A DNA stretch of 31,201 nucleotides from a bacterium (lineage in GTDB: Bacteria; Patescibacteriota; JACMRA01), in the NCBI GenBank assembly GCA_043764135.1, contig JAYUKV010000131.1:1-31201 (forward strand). The letters run 5' to 3'. The notes under the pieces were generated by a model that searched no databases, was not told where the DNA came from, and saw only the letters and a program-made list of their open reading frames with translations. Positions 4,201 to 18,560 of the stretch are shown here, in pieces (positions within the stretch are counted from its first letter, which is position 1; each line of letters begins with the position of its first letter). The translations under genes and the position numbers were made by a program.

Positions 4201-6696
4201 ATGTCATACGATCACAGACAAATAGAAACTAATATTCTTAAATATTGGAATGATAATAATATTTATCAAACCATAAATGATTATTCTAAACCAAAAAAAT
4301 ATATTCTTGATATGTTTCCTTATCCTTCTGGTGCAGGTTTGCATGTTGGACACCCAAGAGGCTATGTAGGAAGCGATATTCTTGCTAGGTTTTATAAACT
4401 CAATGGTTATAATGTACTTCATCCAATGGGGTTTGATTCGTTTGGTTTGCCAGCGGAAAATTACGCTAAAAAGAATAAAGTAATGCCAGCATTGATTACA
4501 CAATCTAATATCGATACTTTTAAAAAGCAGTTAGAATCATTAGGTTTTAGTTATGATTGGGGCAGGGAACTTGCAACAACAGATGAAGACTTCTTCAAAT
4601 GGACACAATGGATATTTCTAGAATTATTCAAAAAAGGCTTAGCCTATGAAGAATCTACTATGGTTAATTGGTGTCCTGGATTGGGGACCATATTAGCTAA
4701 TGAAGAAGTTATAGATGGTTTAAGCGAAATAGGGTCGTATCCAGTATTTAGAAAACCTTTAAAACAATGGTCAATGAGAATTACTCAATATGCTGAAAGG
4801 TTAAATGATGATCTAAATTTGTTAGACAAATGGCCTGAAAAAATCAAAACAATGCAAGCTAATTGGATTGGTAAATCTACAGGTTATGAAGTTAAATTTC
4901 CTGTTATTAATTCAGATCTATTCGTTGAAGTATATACTACAAGATTAGATACAATTGAATCAAATACTTATTTGCTTCTTGCGCCCGAGCATCCATTGGT
5001 CGGACAATTAACAACAGAAGACAATAAGTCAACTGTAGATGAGTACATCAAGCAGACTTCGCTTAAGTCAGATTTGGCTAGACAAGAGAATCAAGAATTT
5101 ACAGGTTGTTTTACTGGTTCTTATGCTACTAACCCTATTAATGGTATAAAATTACCTATTTGGATTGCTGACTTTGTTCTAGCTCATTACGCAAAAGGTG
5201 CTGTTTTCGGAGATGCGCATGATCAAAGAGATTTTGATCTGGCTAAGAAGTATAATATCCCTTTAGATACTAATATTTATCCAGTTAATGCTACACCTGA
5301 TGAGATTGAAGAAATTAAGAATTTAAATATTTGTTATACAGAATTAGGAGTTGACAGTGAGGGTAGAACAAGTGAAGAGCTTAAGAAGTTTTATGGAGAT
5401 AAGCTAGTCGATCAATCTTTGGCAAAAGTAAAAGTTAATTATAGACTCAAAGATTGGGGATTTTCTAGACAGAGGTACTGGGGTGAGCCAATCCCTGTGG
5501 TGTATGAAATTGATGATAATAAGAAAAAAGTTACAGGACCTATAGCTTTGGATTTTTGTACCCTTCCATTGAGATTGCCTTCAATAGATAACTTTGATCT
5601 AATTGATTATGATACGACAAAAGAAGATCCAGAACCTATTTTAAATAGATTTGAGGATTGGTTGTATGTTCAAGGTTATTATAATGATAAAGGTGAGGTG
5701 ATAACAATTGATGAAAATTCAATTATCCCAGAAGGAGTTGAGATTAAAAACTTTATTAGAGAAGGTAATACTATGCCTCAATGGGCTGGCTCTTCTTGGT
5801 ATTATCTAAGATATATGGACAATAAGAATGATCAAGCATTTGTAGATCCTAAGGCTGAGAAATACTGGAATCAAGTTGATATTTATATTGGTGGGGCTGA
5901 ACATGCTGTACTACACTTACTGTACTCAAGGTTTTGGCATAAAGTCTTATTCGACCTTGGTCATGTAACAACAGTTGAACCATTCAAGGAACTAATGAAT
6001 CAAGGTTTAATCATGGCCGAAGACGGTCGCAAAATGTCCAAGTCGCTTGGTAATGTTATCAATCCTGATGATATTGTTAATGAATTAGGAGCAGATTCAC
6101 TTAGATTATTTGAAATGTTTATTGGTCCGTTTGATCAGAATGTGGCTTGGCAGACTAATGGAATAATAGGTATGAGAAGATTCTTAGATAAAATTGAATC
6201 TTTAAAAACCAAGATCCAGGACCAGACAAATCCTAATCTAGACTTCATTCATAACCTTACAATTAAAGAAGTAACCAACAATATCCAAGATTACAAGTTC
6301 AATTCAGCAATAGCAAGAATGATGGAATGGTGTAATGTTGTTATCAAAGAATCTTTTATAGGCAAAAAACAATATCTCCAATTCTTACAAATCCTAGCTC
6401 CGTTTGCTCCATTTCTAACTGATTCAATTTGGTTGGAATTGGGTAATAGTAAATCAATTCATCTATCCACATGGCCTCAATATGATGAAACCAAGATTAT
6501 TGTAAAATCCAAAGTTATTGGTGTTCAAGTTAATGGAAAACTAAGAGGTGAGATAGAAGTGTTCGAAGAAGATACACAAGAACAAGCTCTAGTTAAAGCT
6601 AAAGAAATTGAAAATGTCTCAAGATTCATTGAAGGGGAAATTACCAAAGTAGTATATATTCCAATGAGAGTATTAAATATAATAGTAAATAATTAA
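4201..6696 (+). CDS. leuS: Leucine--tRNA ligase
   Basis: MFPYPSGAGLHVGH (HIGH), KMSKS, WGFSRQRYWGEPIP, CP1 editing-domain motifs YTTRLDT and AHDQRD, C-terminal VQVNGKLRG. Confidence 0.99.
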   Translation: MSYDHRQIETNILKYWNDNNIYQTINDYSKPKKYILDMFPYPSGAGLHVGHPRGYVGSDILARFYKLNGYNVLHPMGFDSFGLPAENYAKKNKVMPALITQSNIDTFKKQLESLGFSYDWGRELATTDEDFFKWTQWIFLELFKKGLAYEESTMVNWCPGLGTILANEEVIDGLSEIGSYPVFRKPLKQWSMRITQYAERLNDDLNLLDKWPEKIKTMQANWIGKSTGYEVKFPVINSDLFVEVYTTRLDTIESNTYLLLAPEHPLVGQLTTEDNKSTVDEYIKQTSLKSDLARQENQEFTGCFTGSYATNPINGIKLPIWIADFVLAHYAKGAVFGDAHDQRDFDLAKKYNIPLDTNIYPVNATPDEIEEIKNLNICYTELGVDSEGRTSEELKKFYGDKLVDQSLAKVKVNYRLKDWGFSRQRYWGEPIPVVYEIDDNKKKVTGPIALDFCTLPLRLPSIDNFDLIDYDTTKEDPEPILNRFEDWLYVQGYYNDKGEVITIDENSIIPEGVEIKNFIREGNTMPQWAGSSWYYLRYMDNKNDQAFVDPKAEKYWNQVDIYIGGAEHAVLHLLYSRFWHKVLFDLGHVTTVEPFKELMNQGLIMAEDGRKMSKSLGNVINPDDIVNELGADSLRLFEMFIGPFDQNVAWQTNGIIGMRRFLDKIESLKTKIQDQTNPNLDFIHNLTIKEVTNNIQDYKFNSAIARMMEWCNVVIKESFIGKKQYLQFLQILAPFAPFLTDSIWLELGNSKSIHLSTWPQYDETKIIVKSKVIGVQVNGKLRGEIEVFEEDTQEQALVKAKEIENVSRFIEGEITKVVYIPMRVLNIIVNN

Positions 6697-8338: not shown

Positions 8339-9774
8339 TATTGGATAATGTTTAAGATTGCTACTATAATTATAGCTATAGAAGAGAAAATGGGCAACAG
8401 AACAGCTATTTGTTCAGCTTGGCTAAAAGTCCTACTTGCTTTGTTTATCACTTTGGCGGTAATATACCCAATTAAACTAAGACTAATACCTAGTCCAATT
8501 GAAAAGATTAACAACATCCAGAATCCCAACCACCCAAGACCTAGAGATATAGAGAGTGTAAATATTATTAATGCATCAAAACAAGGAGTAAAACCAGTAT
8601 TTATTCCAAGCAAGATTGACTCCTTTAGATTTAACCTCTTGCTAGGTAGGTAGTGTTTATGATCTCCATGATCTAGAATTGTAAATGGCTTATTGCTATC
8701 GATATCAAGCTGAATTTCGTCGTATTTGTTTGATTTGGAAGCTAACTTATAATCTACATAATTCTTGTATGATTTTAATATCAAGAAAAAACCAAATATT
8801 AACAAGCTTAATGATGATAGAATCCTAATCCAATTAGCAAGAACAGGTATATTGATCCATTCTTTAGGGATATCAATTGTGAAGTTAATATATGGGATTA
8901 AAAGTTTAAATCCATCTTTGAACACTGCCCAAAGTAGCCCTAATAAAAGTATTATAAATGTATGGCTTATAGTAGTGCTAATTGCCATAATCACAGAGTC
9001 TTTAAATGTACCATTTATTGCACTTAGATATGATCCTATAATAGCTTTACCATGCCCTGGTTGGAATGCATGAAGAGCGCCAAAAATTGCACAAATACCA
9101 AGAATTATTAACAAATTTTGAAATGAGTAGTCAGGGTTTCTTAAAAAACTTTTTACTTTTGAGAAAAGTTCATTATTACTTATTCGATTAAAGAAGCTTA
9201 GATTGTTTATGCCTTTTGGACTTGCAATTGTAGTATTTAATTGTTCAGATACTAGGGTTTTATCTGGATAATATCCTATATTATCAAAGGTCACATTTAC
9301 ATTCTTATCAAGTGATATATTCCAATCTTGTGCAAGGACTGTATTAAATTTGAGTTTGTTATAGATTTTAATCTCTTTGGGGTTTTGATCTAGTATTACT
9401 TTGCCATAGTTGATTTGTAATTCAATAGTTGGAACTACAACTTGTTCAAGATTATTGTATGGGGTAAGAAGTTCAACACTTATTGGTCTATAATCAACTG
9501 AATCGTAATTAATGTATAAATTGTCTCTAAGTTTTGATAAATATTCCTTATTTTCTGAGTCATCAAAAACCTTATCAATATTCTTATCAAAACTTCCAAA
9601 CACAACATCTAGTTCAGAGCTTGGAACATTTATATCTAGAAGAATACTCAATTCTTGTTTATCATTATACACAACTGCAGTGGTCCTAGTTATAGCATTA
9701 CGAACCAGATGTGCATATGATATCTGTGGAATTAAAGCAAGTAAAATTAAACAACAAAATAGTATTTGTTTCAT
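8338..9774 (-). CDS. RcnA/NicO-family Ni/Co transporter fused to a secreted N-terminal domain
   Basis: Signal peptide ending ISYA-H; ALHAFQPGHGK motif, SHT helix, short His loop DHGDHKH, G.TPC.DAL motif; several TM helices in the C-terminal half. Confidence 0.82.
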   Translation of the reverse strand: MKQILFCCLILLALIPQISYAHLVRNAITRTTAVVYNDKQELSILLDINVPSSELDVVFGSFDKNIDKVFDDSENKEYLSKLRDNLYINYDSVDYRPISVELLTPYNNLEQVVVPTIELQINYGKVILDQNPKEIKIYNKLKFNTVLAQDWNISLDKNVNVTFDNIGYYPDKTLVSEQLNTTIASPKGINNLSFFNRISNNELFSKVKSFLRNPDYSFQNLLIILGICAIFGALHAFQPGHGKAIIGSYLSAINGTFKDSVIMAISTTISHTFIILLLGLLWAVFKDGFKLLIPYINFTIDIPKEWINIPVLANWIRILSSLSLLIFGFFLILKSYKNYVDYKLASKSNKYDEIQLDIDSNKPFTILDHGDHKHYLPSKRLNLKESILLGINTGFTPCFDALIIFTLSISLGLGWLGFWMLLIFSIGLGISLSLIGYITAKVINKASRTFSQAEQIAVLLPIFSSIAIIIVAILNIIQ

Positions 9775-11019: not shown

Positions 11020-12009
11020 TTAGAATTGATTGTAATAGTGTTGAGTTAGTACAATTAATTCCTGAATTTGAACAGTAGAAGAGGCAGTCATAGGACTCTC
11101 AATAATACCACTAGAGGAACCTCCCCAACCCACTTCAGCAATATTTTGTTTAAAGAAGGGGACAAAGCCTGGATGATTGGACCCGTTCTGGATCATCAAC
11201 GAGAATTTGTTTATAGGTTCACTTTGACCATTGAAGCCTTTAAATTCTGGCAAGTGTAGGATAGCGGTTGTGTCAACTGTCGGCGTGAAAAGATAGAGAA
11301 GTTCGGGCAGAAGTCCGGAACCTAATGTGGTAGCCAAGGAAATCGAGTGATCATGATAAACAATCGATTTTGCAAGATTTGCAATTTCATTAACATGTCT
11401 ATCATTGAAAAACCTTGGTTCAGTCGGGTTGGATAACTCCTGACCGAATGCTTCGAGCTTTTCTTCGAGGCTTGTTGCTTTGTTGTTACAAATCCCAATA
11501 TAATTTGAGATCATGTAGGTTACTGAATTCTTAAGCATTTCGGCAATTAATCCAGTATCACTTGCATCAACCGTAGTTCGATCAATCAGCATTCTACGGC
11601 AATCGTGAGCTGCAATCAGCTCTAATTGTCGTTTTTGAACAACTGTCAGATCGCTAAAGTTTCTACCAGATTGTCTCTGATAAATTACCCATAAAGCAGC
11701 GAGCGCATCTGGGTCTAGTCTTCCAGGCAATGCCACAATGCAATTATCTGCGAACAGTGGTTTATGGTTCCATGCGGACTCGCAAGCTGCAATTCCATAT
11801 TGTGCTTGAAATGTGAGTTCATGCCCATCATAGATGCGGTAAAGCATCAATTTAGCAAGATTTTTATCTTGAACTGCTGCGTGCTGTGGATCGAATGAAA
11901 TCGTTCCATAGCCTAATGTAAGCGCAGCGAATTCATTAATTTCGATCGCAATAATTTGTTCTTTTGTATCGAGAATGTTTTCAATAATCAGACTTTGAGT
12001 CAATTTCAT
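11020..12009 (-). CDS. Hypothetical protein, 329 aa; tentatively a divergent DHH-like phosphoesterase fold
   Basis: GAGG SD, promoter and terminator; motifs FDPQH, RLDPDALAALW, AAHD and C-terminal GWGGSSSGIIESP loosely recall DHH/DHHA1 architecture. ORF is secure; function is tentative. Confidence 0.6.
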   Translation of the reverse strand: MKLTQSLIIENILDTKEQIIAIEINEFAALTLGYGTISFDPQHAAVQDKNLAKLMLYRIYDGHELTFQAQYGIAACESAWNHKPLFADNCIVALPGRLDPDALAALWVIYQRQSGRNFSDLTVVQKRQLELIAAHDCRRMLIDRTTVDASDTGLIAEMLKNSVTYMISNYIGICNNKATSLEEKLEAFGQELSNPTEPRFFNDRHVNEIANLAKSIVYHDHSISLATTLGSGLLPELLYLFTPTVDTTAILHLPEFKGFNGQSEPINKFSLMIQNGSNHPGFVPFFKQNIAEVGWGGSSSGIIESPMTASSTVQIQELIVLTQHYYNQF

Positions 12010-12039: not shown

Positions 12040-12068
12040 TAAATAGCACAATAATTGTATGATGTCAA
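12040..12068 (-). promoter_or_regulatory. Sigma70-type promoter of ORF 11020..12009
   Basis: TTGACA (12068-12063)-N17-TATTTA (12045-12040). Confidence 0.55.
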
Positions 12069-12191
12069 TCTTAATTGTTCAAAAACTAACACTTATTAAA
12101 TATATTATCAAATACAATAAAAAATGTAATATTTTTAAGTAAAATGGGTTATAAAAAAGTTCATTTTAATTCAATTAAATTAGCGATTTAT

Positions 12192-12491
12192 GGTGTTTTC
12201 GAACATACCTCGCCCTTTGGCCACTCCTTTCAACCTTGAAAGGAGAAATTCTTAGAAGTTGATTAACAGATGTTGTAAAACATTTCCATTATCTTATTTC
12301 AAAAATAGAAACTCTGCTTTATTTAAAGAACCTTTCAAGGCTGAACCCTCACCTAAATCTTTTTGCAAAAGATTCAGGAAACCTGAAGGGAACCCTCACC
12401 TAAATTCAAACAGTCGATTTTCTCTAAGTTTTAAATTCAAGTACCTGAGGGGTGCGATAGCTAATAGTGATGTGGTTTGTTCGAAAATATC
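12192..12491. mobile_element. REPIN/MITE-like non-autonomous palindromic element, 300 nt
   Basis: Terminal inverted repeats GGTGTTTTCGAACATACCTC / GTGGTTTGTTCGAAAATATC (16/20); internal hairpin CTCCTTTCAA-CC-TTGAAAGGAG; left end repeated at 18441. Confidence 0.55.
12343..12405 (+). repeat. 16-bp direct repeat GAACCCTCACCTAAAT x2, period 47
   Basis: Exact copies at 12343-12358 and 12390-12405, separated by hairpins AATCTTTT/AAAAGATT and TTCAGG/CCTGAA. Confidence 0.9.
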
Positions 12492-12565: not shown

Positions 12566-13174
12566 TTACAAAATTAATGTGATAAGCGCCTGATATAGTT
12601 CATCAGGTTCAATATACTTCGAAAGCTTACCTTTTTGATCTACCTTGAATTTAAGTTGAGTTTTATTACCTTTAAAATAATATTCCTCATTGTCTAGATA
12701 TTCAAAAAAAAGAACACCATCAACTTTATTTATTATTAACAAGTGTGGATGCCTAACTGAGATTTTACTAATCAACCTATCTATGTAAGATGCGTGTATT
12801 ACCATTAATATTTGAAAAACAAATATTATTCCAAGTGCAATAATTAACGCCATTGGAGCAATAACATTATGAAACACCAACAAAACAAATATACTTATTC
12901 CAACTACTGGAGAAGCAATTTTACCAAAATTTAGTATTCTTCCGTGAAACCTGGTCTTTTTTAGTATTTTTCTTTGTTTGATAGTAAGTTGAATAGCGTC
13001 AGGGTTATTGTAGTATACAACCTTTAAAGATCCGTCATTTAAATCTAGAATTTGATTAAGAACTTGGAAAAGCTTTGGATCAAATTTTCTGGCATAAAAC
13101 GGTTGTTTTATTTTTTTTGGGTTTTTTGTAAGTAAAACTTGTAACTCCCAATTCAGCTCATCAATTGTACACAT
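12566..13174 (-). CDS. Hypothetical membrane protein (2 TM), 202 aa
   Basis: Two adjacent hydrophobic segments (IASPVVGISIFVLLVF; VIAPMALIIALGIIFVFQILMVI). Confidence 0.75.
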   Translation of the reverse strand: MCTIDELNWELQVLLTKNPKKIKQPFYARKFDPKLFQVLNQILDLNDGSLKVVYYNNPDAIQLTIKQRKILKKTRFHGRILNFGKIASPVVGISIFVLLVFHNVIAPMALIIALGIIFVFQILMVIHASYIDRLISKISVRHPHLLIINKVDGVLFFEYLDNEEYYFKGNKTQLKFKVDQKGKLSKYIEPDELYQALITLIL

Positions 13175-18274: not shown

Positions 18275-18437
18275 TATACTCAAACCACACCAACCCCCAT
18301 CTAATATAGATAGAAAAAATTGGATATAATAGTGACTATTTCAAGCTTCTTATGCTTTGCATAAAAGATTGAGATAGTAGCTATTAGATACTATTTTGGC
18401 ATTTAGATAAGGTGGAGGTTGGTATGGTTTGAGTATA
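18275..18437. repeat. 163-nt fold-back element (candidate MITE or 6S-like ncRNA)
   Basis: Arms TATACTCAAACCACACCAACC (18275-18295) / GGTTGGTATGGTTTGAGTATA (18417-18437) match 20/21; ATCTAA/TTAGAT extension; inner hairpin 18336-18377. Confidence 0.8.
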
Positions 18438-18440
18438 TAT

Positions 18441-18560
18441 GATGTTTTCGAACTTACCTCGCCCTTGGGGCACTCCTTTCAACCTTGAAAGGAGAGTTTC
18501 TTCGAGGCTGATTTATTTATGTTGTATCAAAGTAATTCAAATAGTAGAAATTCTACTTGT
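18441..18560 (+). repeat. Partial second copy of the 12192 element left end
   Basis: GATGTTTTCGAACTTACCTCGCCCTTGGGGCACTCCTTTCAACCTTGAAAGGAG aligns with 12192-12245 with few substitutions; similarity decays through TAGAAATTCTACTT versus TAGAAACTCTGCTT. Confidence 0.9.

Follow-up and report, generated by a model that had tools for sequence, protein, structure and literature searches.

What is the 300-nt palindromic element at positions 12192-12491 of this DNA, and by which route did it come to lie there? The window, by which we mean the whole analysed stretch of 31,201 nt, is contig C131 of a genome that we refer to as G000 (1.39 Mb in 156 contigs, 85% complete). The element sits inside a 556-nt gap that is flanked by two minus-strand orphan genes (11020-12009 and 12566-13174). 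The initial annotation described it as a REPIN/BIME-like composite palindrome in a CPR-like genome. A CPR-like background is indeed plausible: LeuRS has its best matches in CPR MAGs (46-53% identity), Saccharimonadota supply the nearest RecJ cluster and the genomes of relatives measure 0.7-1.6 Mb. We propose that the element is a non-coding, decayed and gene-less composite of the end repeats of a DUF559 nuclease cassette, similar to the BoxC/TMECO repeats, that contains nested B hairpins and is orphaned in G000. To this reading we assign a probability of roughly 0.6.

The element is composed of an inverted pair of module A, a double-hairpin unit of about 55 nt, that encloses three tandem copies of a hairpin repeat B. 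The features that had been described from the letters alone could all be recovered. The left module A (12189-12254, plus strand, T-type) is intact and scores 72.0 bits with nhmmer and 84.2 and 57.5 bits with the covariance models R1 and R2. It contains a putative third-strand segment CATACCTC (12204-12211), linker hairpin 1 (12212-12222), which has one mismatch in the window copy, and hairpin 2 (12224-12245, followed by AAAT), whose arms CTCCTTTCAA and TTGAAAGGAG at 12224-12233 and 12236-12245 are 100% complementary. A remnant of the right arm of the unit follows at 12255-12290 (plus strand) and has homologous stretches in contigs C91, C32 and C116. Within it, positions 12270-12282 are able to pair with 12194-12206 (13 nt, 85% complementary), closing a local fold of about 90 nt. 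The three B units are likewise on the plus strand. Unit 1 (12286-12342) is a decayed hairpin repeat that aligns to the intact 63-nt units of C91, unit 2 (12343-12389) is a 47-nt variant, and unit 3 (12390-12452) is of the 63-nt type and matches a C91 unit with nhmmer E=4.7e-7. The right module A (12448-12491, minus strand, C-type) is decayed, as had been noticed; it is homologous to the intact inverted right module of C91, aligns also with that of C32, and retains the TTCGAAC..ACC head and the linker region, while hairpin 2 is gone. Both termini (12191-12207 and 12473-12489) carry the near-palindromic TGGT(G/T)T(T/G)TTCGAA(C/A)ATA and are base-paired with each other in the minimum-energy fold of the plus strand. 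Folding of 12192-12491 beats that of shuffled sequences on both strands (z -3.6 and -4.8), and the G+C content of 36.3% exceeds the 19.8% and 24.3% of the flanking intergenic DNA.

The repeated DNA extends to the left beyond 12192 and starts at about 12078. Its left edge is a degenerate terminal inverted repeat (TIR CTGAAGACTTAACACTTTTTA; 12078-12101, plus strand) of an insertion sequence termed IS-X, with 3 mismatches to the 20-mer AAACCTAACACTTTTTAAAA at 12082-12101. From there an extension of about 90 nt (12102-12188, plus strand) reaches to the module. This extension is common to 8 other module A copies and never occurs without a module, and homology to the left arm of a ~130-nt unit in the relative G008 covers its final ~45 nt. 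A promoter-like pair of boxes (TTGAAC, 17 nt, TACAAT) lies on the minus strand at 12054-12082 and faces the 329-aa gene. It scores at chance level; its -35 box is the outer end of the degenerate IS-X repeat, and it could be a hybrid promoter. The window has a second module A copy (18437-18502, plus strand), which abuts a 163-nt fold-back repeat at 18275-18437. This fold-back represents a family of about 12 copies that are 83-98% identical, with further members on C29, C99, C69, C11, C17, C50, C138 and C79. Repeat B has about a dozen copies in G000.

Module A is not limited to two syntenic copies, as a conserved regulatory motif might have been. G000 holds 23 copies of it (nhmmer, E<1e-3; unit length ~55-65 nt) beside unrelated genes, and the 12-mer TTCGAACATACC occurs 17 times in the genome, every time within a module; the decayed right module of the window has it with one mismatch at 12474 on the minus strand. 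All 23 copies are intergenic, outside ORFs of at least 100 aa. The neighbouring proteins are unrelated to each other, and for this reason we rejected the idea of a conserved upstream region of a paralogous gene family. Further inverted doublets are found on C91 (325 nt, both arms intact), C28 (158 nt), C88 (349 nt) and C32, and module A is also present within mosaic clusters. Several copies lie at contig ends, and hence the family breaks assemblies. As far as the layout is concerned, with dispersed and solely intergenic hairpin modules, inverted doublets and mosaic clusters, the comparison with REPINs and BIMEs was well chosen; mobilisation by a RAYT, the other half of that comparison, was not supported.

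The module has three parts, namely an 8-nt segment CATACCYC, a short linker hairpin and a hairpin of 8-10 bp, CYCCTTTC / GAAAGGRG, and comes in two sub-types, CTCC/GGAG and CCCC/GGGG. In the linker hairpin the sequence varies and the pairing is maintained. Over 20 aligned copies, pairing holds in 95% of the cells compared with 90% in shuffles (0 of 500 shuffles equal it), and three base pairs are altered on both sides. As a third strand, the 8-nt segment corresponds to hairpin 2 at every base. Read on the complementary strand, all eight triples follow the canonical purine motif: over 32 distinct copies from 6 genera this holds for 234 of 241 triples (97%) with the strands in register, compared with 24-61% when the third strand is slid. 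A base pair of hairpin 2 and one base of the single-stranded 5' segment vary in concert. Two positions switch jointly in all three strands, once in the T-type copies of G000 and once in the relatives G013 and G017. By its sequence, module A fits the intrastrand-triplex design of the BoxC/TMECO type, and it may form such a triplex. The signals for the folding strand are in conflict: hairpin 2, which contains three U-G wobbles, and the closing stem of the G008 unit, which is rich in G-U pairs, favour the strand that reads CATACC, whereas the eight canonical triples are on the opposite strand.

Other assemblies of the same population carry the locus as well. In one of them the sequence around 12 kb is identical over 600 nt except for one extra tandem 47-nt B unit; the unit that stands once in our window stands there twice in tandem. 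This difference in copy number reflects either a real gain or loss or a collapse during assembly. Empty-site alleles, which had been suggested as a check, were not found for the window element in the other assemblies available. At the second copy, two other assemblies of the population match the window as far as 18437 and then diverge into a further insertion sequence, IS-Y; they have five differences in the right half of the fold-back 18275-18437. We read the divergence after 18437 as a path switch inside the repeat rather than as an empty site; alternatively, it is a real rearrangement. In three assemblies contigs break at or beside these repeats.

How could such a module have reached 23 sites? 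It might be cargo between the TIRs of IS-X, that is, a MITE moved by the DDE transposase of this insertion sequence. A module unit on C33 is flanked by a 24-nt stretch that is identical to an IS-X end (24/24 nt), near-identical stretches occur on C76, C8 and C28, and on these four contigs units of about 200 nt consist of a TIR, the extension, the module and a second TIR. IS-X ends were located at 10 contig ends, and the window locus has the degenerate left TIR at 12082-12101. However, a TIR is present on either side of only about 6 of the 23 module copies, and a search for a right-hand IS-X TIR at the window locus gave no match. A target duplication is not seen at the TIR-bounded units, nor was a convincing direct repeat found at the edges of the doublets or of the ThrRS cassette described below. 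Because IS-X is absent from all 25 relatives and the module is present in 15 of them, module A is older than and independent of IS-X, which forms a recent layer and accounts for part of the module spread, not for the family. As an explanation of the family itself, the MITE reading is therefore rather unlikely.

The insertion sequences of this genome deserve a few remarks of their own. IS-X is multi-copy, with a perfect 21-nt inverted repeat CTGAAGACTTAACACTTTTTA (21-24 nt around the module units), and its interior is missing from the bin. Its ends lie at the starts of C12, C13, C21 and C140, at the ends of C117 and C126 and at the starts of C22, C91, C66 and C32; one of them includes a TTGACA promoter box and the protein start MNNKVTENEF. 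IS-Y is more abundant, with ends at about 28 contig termini (e.g. C5:1-121, C153:1-96, C88:3143-3237), which implies 14 or more copies and is unusual for a genome of this size. Contig C124 (8.7 kb) has tandem iteron-like repeats of about 22 nt (GTCCAACATTGACCCCCATTTT) at both ends (1-120 and 8630-8729) and also encodes an IS5-type transposase; it could be a small circular replicon or a phage. Two ORFs of 1239 and 1285 aa have a zinc ribbon of the TnpB/Cas12 type (PF07282) near the C-terminus (C32:~5762-6283 and C59:188-256) and could be Cas12-like effectors or TnpB fusions.

The classical alternative is a REP/REPIN family that is moved by a RAYT, a Y1 HUH transposase, and this is what the initial annotation had in mind. 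Module A is REP-like in that hairpins stand next to conserved single-stranded flanks, inverted doublets occur, the copies in G000 are strictly extragenic and the family persists across the lineage. Homologues of Y1_Tnp are also present in G000, but these are only two pseudogenised tnpA genes of the IS200/IS605 type (NF033573). Stop codons and small insertions disrupt both of them, one adjoins tnpB, and neither is flanked by modules. In five relatives no Y1 gene was found on any contig that holds a module, the presence of Y1 genes across the family does not track that of the module (Fisher p=0.23), and module A is devoid of a GTAG-type head. The RAYT reading is thus largely refuted, and we regard it as very improbable. 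IS200/IS605 ends and TnpB guide RNAs were rejected as identities too, the tnpA and tnpB contigs being without modules. The two tnpA genes are interrupted by three B-type hairpin units of 35-61 nt that shift the frame (C83:1872-1934, C83:~2005-2039 and C110:586-626), and each paralogue offers the empty site for the B-unit insertion of the other.

The wider distribution of module A became visible with covariance models only. BLAST of the module against 40 relatives gave no match, and the exact 22-mer of hairpin 2 had 0 matches in 185,579 species genomes and 2 in metagenome contigs, both by chance. Of the 25 other genomes from this GTDB family, 15 gave matches to covariance model R2, with 1-49 copies each and a spread over 10 of the 17 other genera; elsewhere in the phylum, 2 of 144 sampled genomes had the module. 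Genomes of CPR/Patescibacteria are small and usually thought to be repeat-poor. This lineage keeps a structured family in no fewer than 11 genera, where a genome can have as many as 49 copies, and G000 additionally contains two insertion sequences that have expanded and two more families of small repeats. The core that relatives have in common reads AAAC-AUACCCCG, a variable linker hairpin and CACCCCUUU-loop-AAAGGGGAAUUU. In G008 it is embedded in the ~130-nt unit, which has a 27-bp closing stem plus three hairpins and is more stable on the strand that reads CATACC (-47.7 vs -30.5 kcal/mol; 17 of 21 copies); covariation in the linker hairpin is seen there too, and no autonomous element bearing the arms of the G008 unit was found. 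The module frame is open in both orientations in relatives, and host ORFs read through it. In-gene copies, in either orientation, occur in ThrRS, HsdS and a DUF1016 protein.

Two clusters in relatives may be mentioned here. In G006, four module A copies stand directly by the tmRNA gene (C13:96-714; tmRNA gene at 769-1302). In G008, five same-strand units are spaced by 0.45-1.1 kb (C15:4732-8208) and alternate with small genes, including an AbrB-like and PIN-like toxin-antitoxin pair, with other short hairpin repeats in between. This row resembles a cassette array and suggested an integron attC array, a candidate that we rejected: no match to the integrase model TIGR02249 exceeds 121 bits, where the cut-off is 265 bits, the 14 control genomes all give the same picture, and the module ends are not complementary to each other as those of an attC site would be.

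A core that is conserved in 11 genera with compensatory changes could also be a functional structured or cis-acting RNA that selection maintains and that serves, for instance, as a terminator or insulator, as a processing site or as a multi-copy small RNA. The marked strand preference of the G008 unit would agree with this, as would the upstream genes of G008, which are co-oriented with the unit somewhat more often than not (11 vs 5). Rfam, however, gave no match at any threshold, gathering or E-value; the window, the G008 units and low-copy relatives returned nothing beyond chance. The orientation of the modules relative to neighbouring genes is inconsistent in G000, promoter-like and terminator-like matches are at chance level, and an SD-like GGAG is not followed by a conserved downstream ORF. 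Moreover, the copy number ranges from 0 to 49 between genera, and copies in relatives lie within reading frames in either orientation. An RNA under selection is therefore unlikely. The more specific candidates of a terminator or promoter and of a leader for a small ORF or type I toxin were discarded, the latter since neither a start codon nor a peptide is conserved after the GGAG. ARAGORN detected no tRNA or tmRNA.

The cassette reading comes from the genes that the module accompanies in relatives. A DUF559-like ORF beside a module pair in G041 prompted a PF04480 search of the family genomes, on which the module positions were overlaid. Nine loci combine a DUF559 (Vsr-like) domain with a module on the same strand that starts 3-111 nt behind it; they come from eight genomes, which represent seven genera and two families. 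At four of the nine (G024:C71, G041:C140, G008:C2 and G016:C47) an inverted module stands upstream of the gene as well. Examples of DUF559 genes flanked by modules are one of 138 aa at G009:C19 and one of 192 aa at G024:C46. The cassette in relatives measures about 0.5 kb and consists of a gene for a DUF559 (Vsr-like PD-(D/E)XK) nuclease between inverted copies of module A. Since modules are rare, with 6-49 per megabase-sized genome, the chance of a module-gene adjacency is about 1e-3 per gene. Among the 25 relatives, 12 have both module and DUF559, 3 the module only, 3 DUF559 only and 7 neither (Fisher p=0.034, a significance that is overstated as the genomes are kin). Module-rich relatives without DUF559 are G006, G014 and G017, two or three DUF559 carriers are without modules, and most of the large helicase-type proteins that have DUF559 as their C-terminal domain show no module close by. 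The suggestion to look for DUF559-type genes flanked by the same motif was borne out in seven genera of relatives and failed in G000, where the 85%-complete assembly gave no PF04480 match.

One such cassette lies in the ThrRS gene of G013. This gene has an in-frame insertion of about 175 aa that is absent from the orthologues of G005 and G014 (69% and 67% identical). The insertion opens with a recognisable inverted module, holds the DUF559 domain and stops exactly at the 3' end of a module. In sequence terms this single case is a comparison of a filled with an empty site for the whole cassette, which is a discrete insertion in this gene. The site after about residue 127 of ThrRS has different in-frame inserts depending on the genus: two GNAT domains (500 aa), a SAM methyltransferase (283 aa), a DUF952 domain (113 aa) and DUF559 (175 aa). 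The ThrRS genes of relatives behind this observation are G011:C141, G024:C125, G008:C60 and G013:C2, and also those of G017, G015, G009, G018, G020 and G006; an uninterrupted ThrRS of 614-651 aa is found in thirteen genomes, G000 included.

These findings also bear on the idea that module A is a non-mobile DNA structural motif retained by the host, namely a triplex or hairpin that acts as a hot spot of recombination or rearrangement or as a protein-binding site, and was spread by ordinary recombination. The triplex-compatible design agrees with such a role, as do the contig breaks at or near the repeats in three assemblies and the variable number of 47-nt units, and the E. coli TMECO repeats are associated with genomic instability (PMC4666352). 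Yet recombination alone does not explain the dispersal to 23 unrelated intergenic sites, nor why modules precisely bracket a nuclease gene in seven genera, nor the discrete insertion in ThrRS. We consider this reading improbable.

We return to the cassette ends. All 23 module copies in G000, including that of the window, are most likely gene-less derivatives of such ends. They would have multiplied in the past by means of an enzyme that was supplied in trans, and they would now be orphans; they look orphaned because no DUF559 gene was found in the assembly. In the doublets of G000 the 5' ends of the modules point outward, which is the reverse of the cassette ends in relatives, and hence a simple deletion of the gene does not produce these doublets. 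Tentatively, we suggest that the DUF559 nuclease may recognise the module or cut it and in this way bring about its spread. Somewhat more doubtful is the broader proposal that module A and DUF559 form a partnership of repeat and enzyme that follows the logic of REPIN and RAYT with unrelated parts. Cutting at folded ends might then copy both the cassette and gene-less modules, also into in-frame sites of essential genes, and the orphans of G000 would be fossils that were left after loss of the enzyme. We found no published description of end repeats of DUF559 cassettes. For the window element itself the practical message is modest: it is decayed non-coding repeat DNA, neither a gene nor a known RNA. 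In all likelihood it is what selfish DNA has left behind, and not a gene or a regulatory RNA.

How does this family compare with known repeats? REP/REPIN elements and their RAYT transposases are well described (Bertels and Rainey 2011, PMC3116915, PMC3337134; Nunvar et al. 2010, PMC2817692). Like these, module A consists of short imperfect palindromes that are multi-copy, extragenic and persistent in the lineage and that occur singly, as inverted doublets and in mosaic clusters, and in relatives the modules flank a small nuclease-type gene in inverted orientation. However, this gene encodes a DUF559 PD-(D/E)XK nuclease and not a Y1 HUH transposase. Module A moreover has two hairpins and a third-strand segment, and tens of copies rather than hundreds are low for a REP family. 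In contrast to REPINs, the spacers of the G000 doublets are long (28-230 nt) and filled with other repeats, and copies in relatives may be in frame within genes.

With MITEs (Correia, RUP, ERIC) and BIMEs, module A shares that it is non-autonomous, structured and intergenic, that it nests in or abuts other repeats and that a subset is bounded by repeats of a resident IS. Most copies, however, have neither IS-type terminal repeats nor a target duplication, and the conserved part is the internal folded module instead of the termini. The palindromic elements of Rickettsia (RPEs; Ogata et al. 2000) are reportedly small palindromic repeats that lie in frame in protein genes and can be read in either orientation. 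The copies of module A that lie in frame within ThrRS, HsdS and a DUF1016 protein of relatives resemble them. RPEs differ in that they are not known to have an associated nuclease gene, and the siting in G000, with 23 of 23 copies intergenic, is unlike that of RPEs.

A precedent for the proposed role of the enzyme is I-Bth0305I, a homing endonuclease of a group I intron that belongs to the Vsr/DUF559 clade (PMC3424549, group 58). Nucleases of the DUF559 fold can thus drive the spread of their own gene. Unlike the intron of I-Bth0305I, the DUF559 cassette has no Rfam group I intron match, is read through in frame and has folded inverted ends.

In structure, module A resembles the BoxC/PIT/TMECO repeats, intrastrand-triplex elements known from E. 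coli and from other bacteria (Holder et al. 2015, PMC4666352). Module A has the same strand order as TMECO, with a pyrimidine arm, a loop, a purine arm, a connector and a purine-rich third strand that runs antiparallel to the purine arm. All eight triples would be canonical purine-motif triples, and the copies are likewise intergenic, often in inverted tandems and at unstable loci. There are differences in the details. The connector of module A is a hairpin of 11-17 nt in place of the 3-nt loop of TMECO and falls outside the ITxF loops of 1-6 nt (PMC4666352). Its stem, CYCCTTTC/GAAAGGRG, is richer in A/T than the G/C-rich 9-nt stem of TMECO, and its triplex is a prediction from the sequence. 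The published work on BoxC/TMECO names no protein partner (PMC4666352). What we add is a clade-wide census, a filled and an empty site and the triple covariation in this lineage. The link between module and DUF559 thereby offers, in a case that extends across a clade, a candidate protein partner for the long-unexplained triplex repeats of the BoxC/TMECO type.
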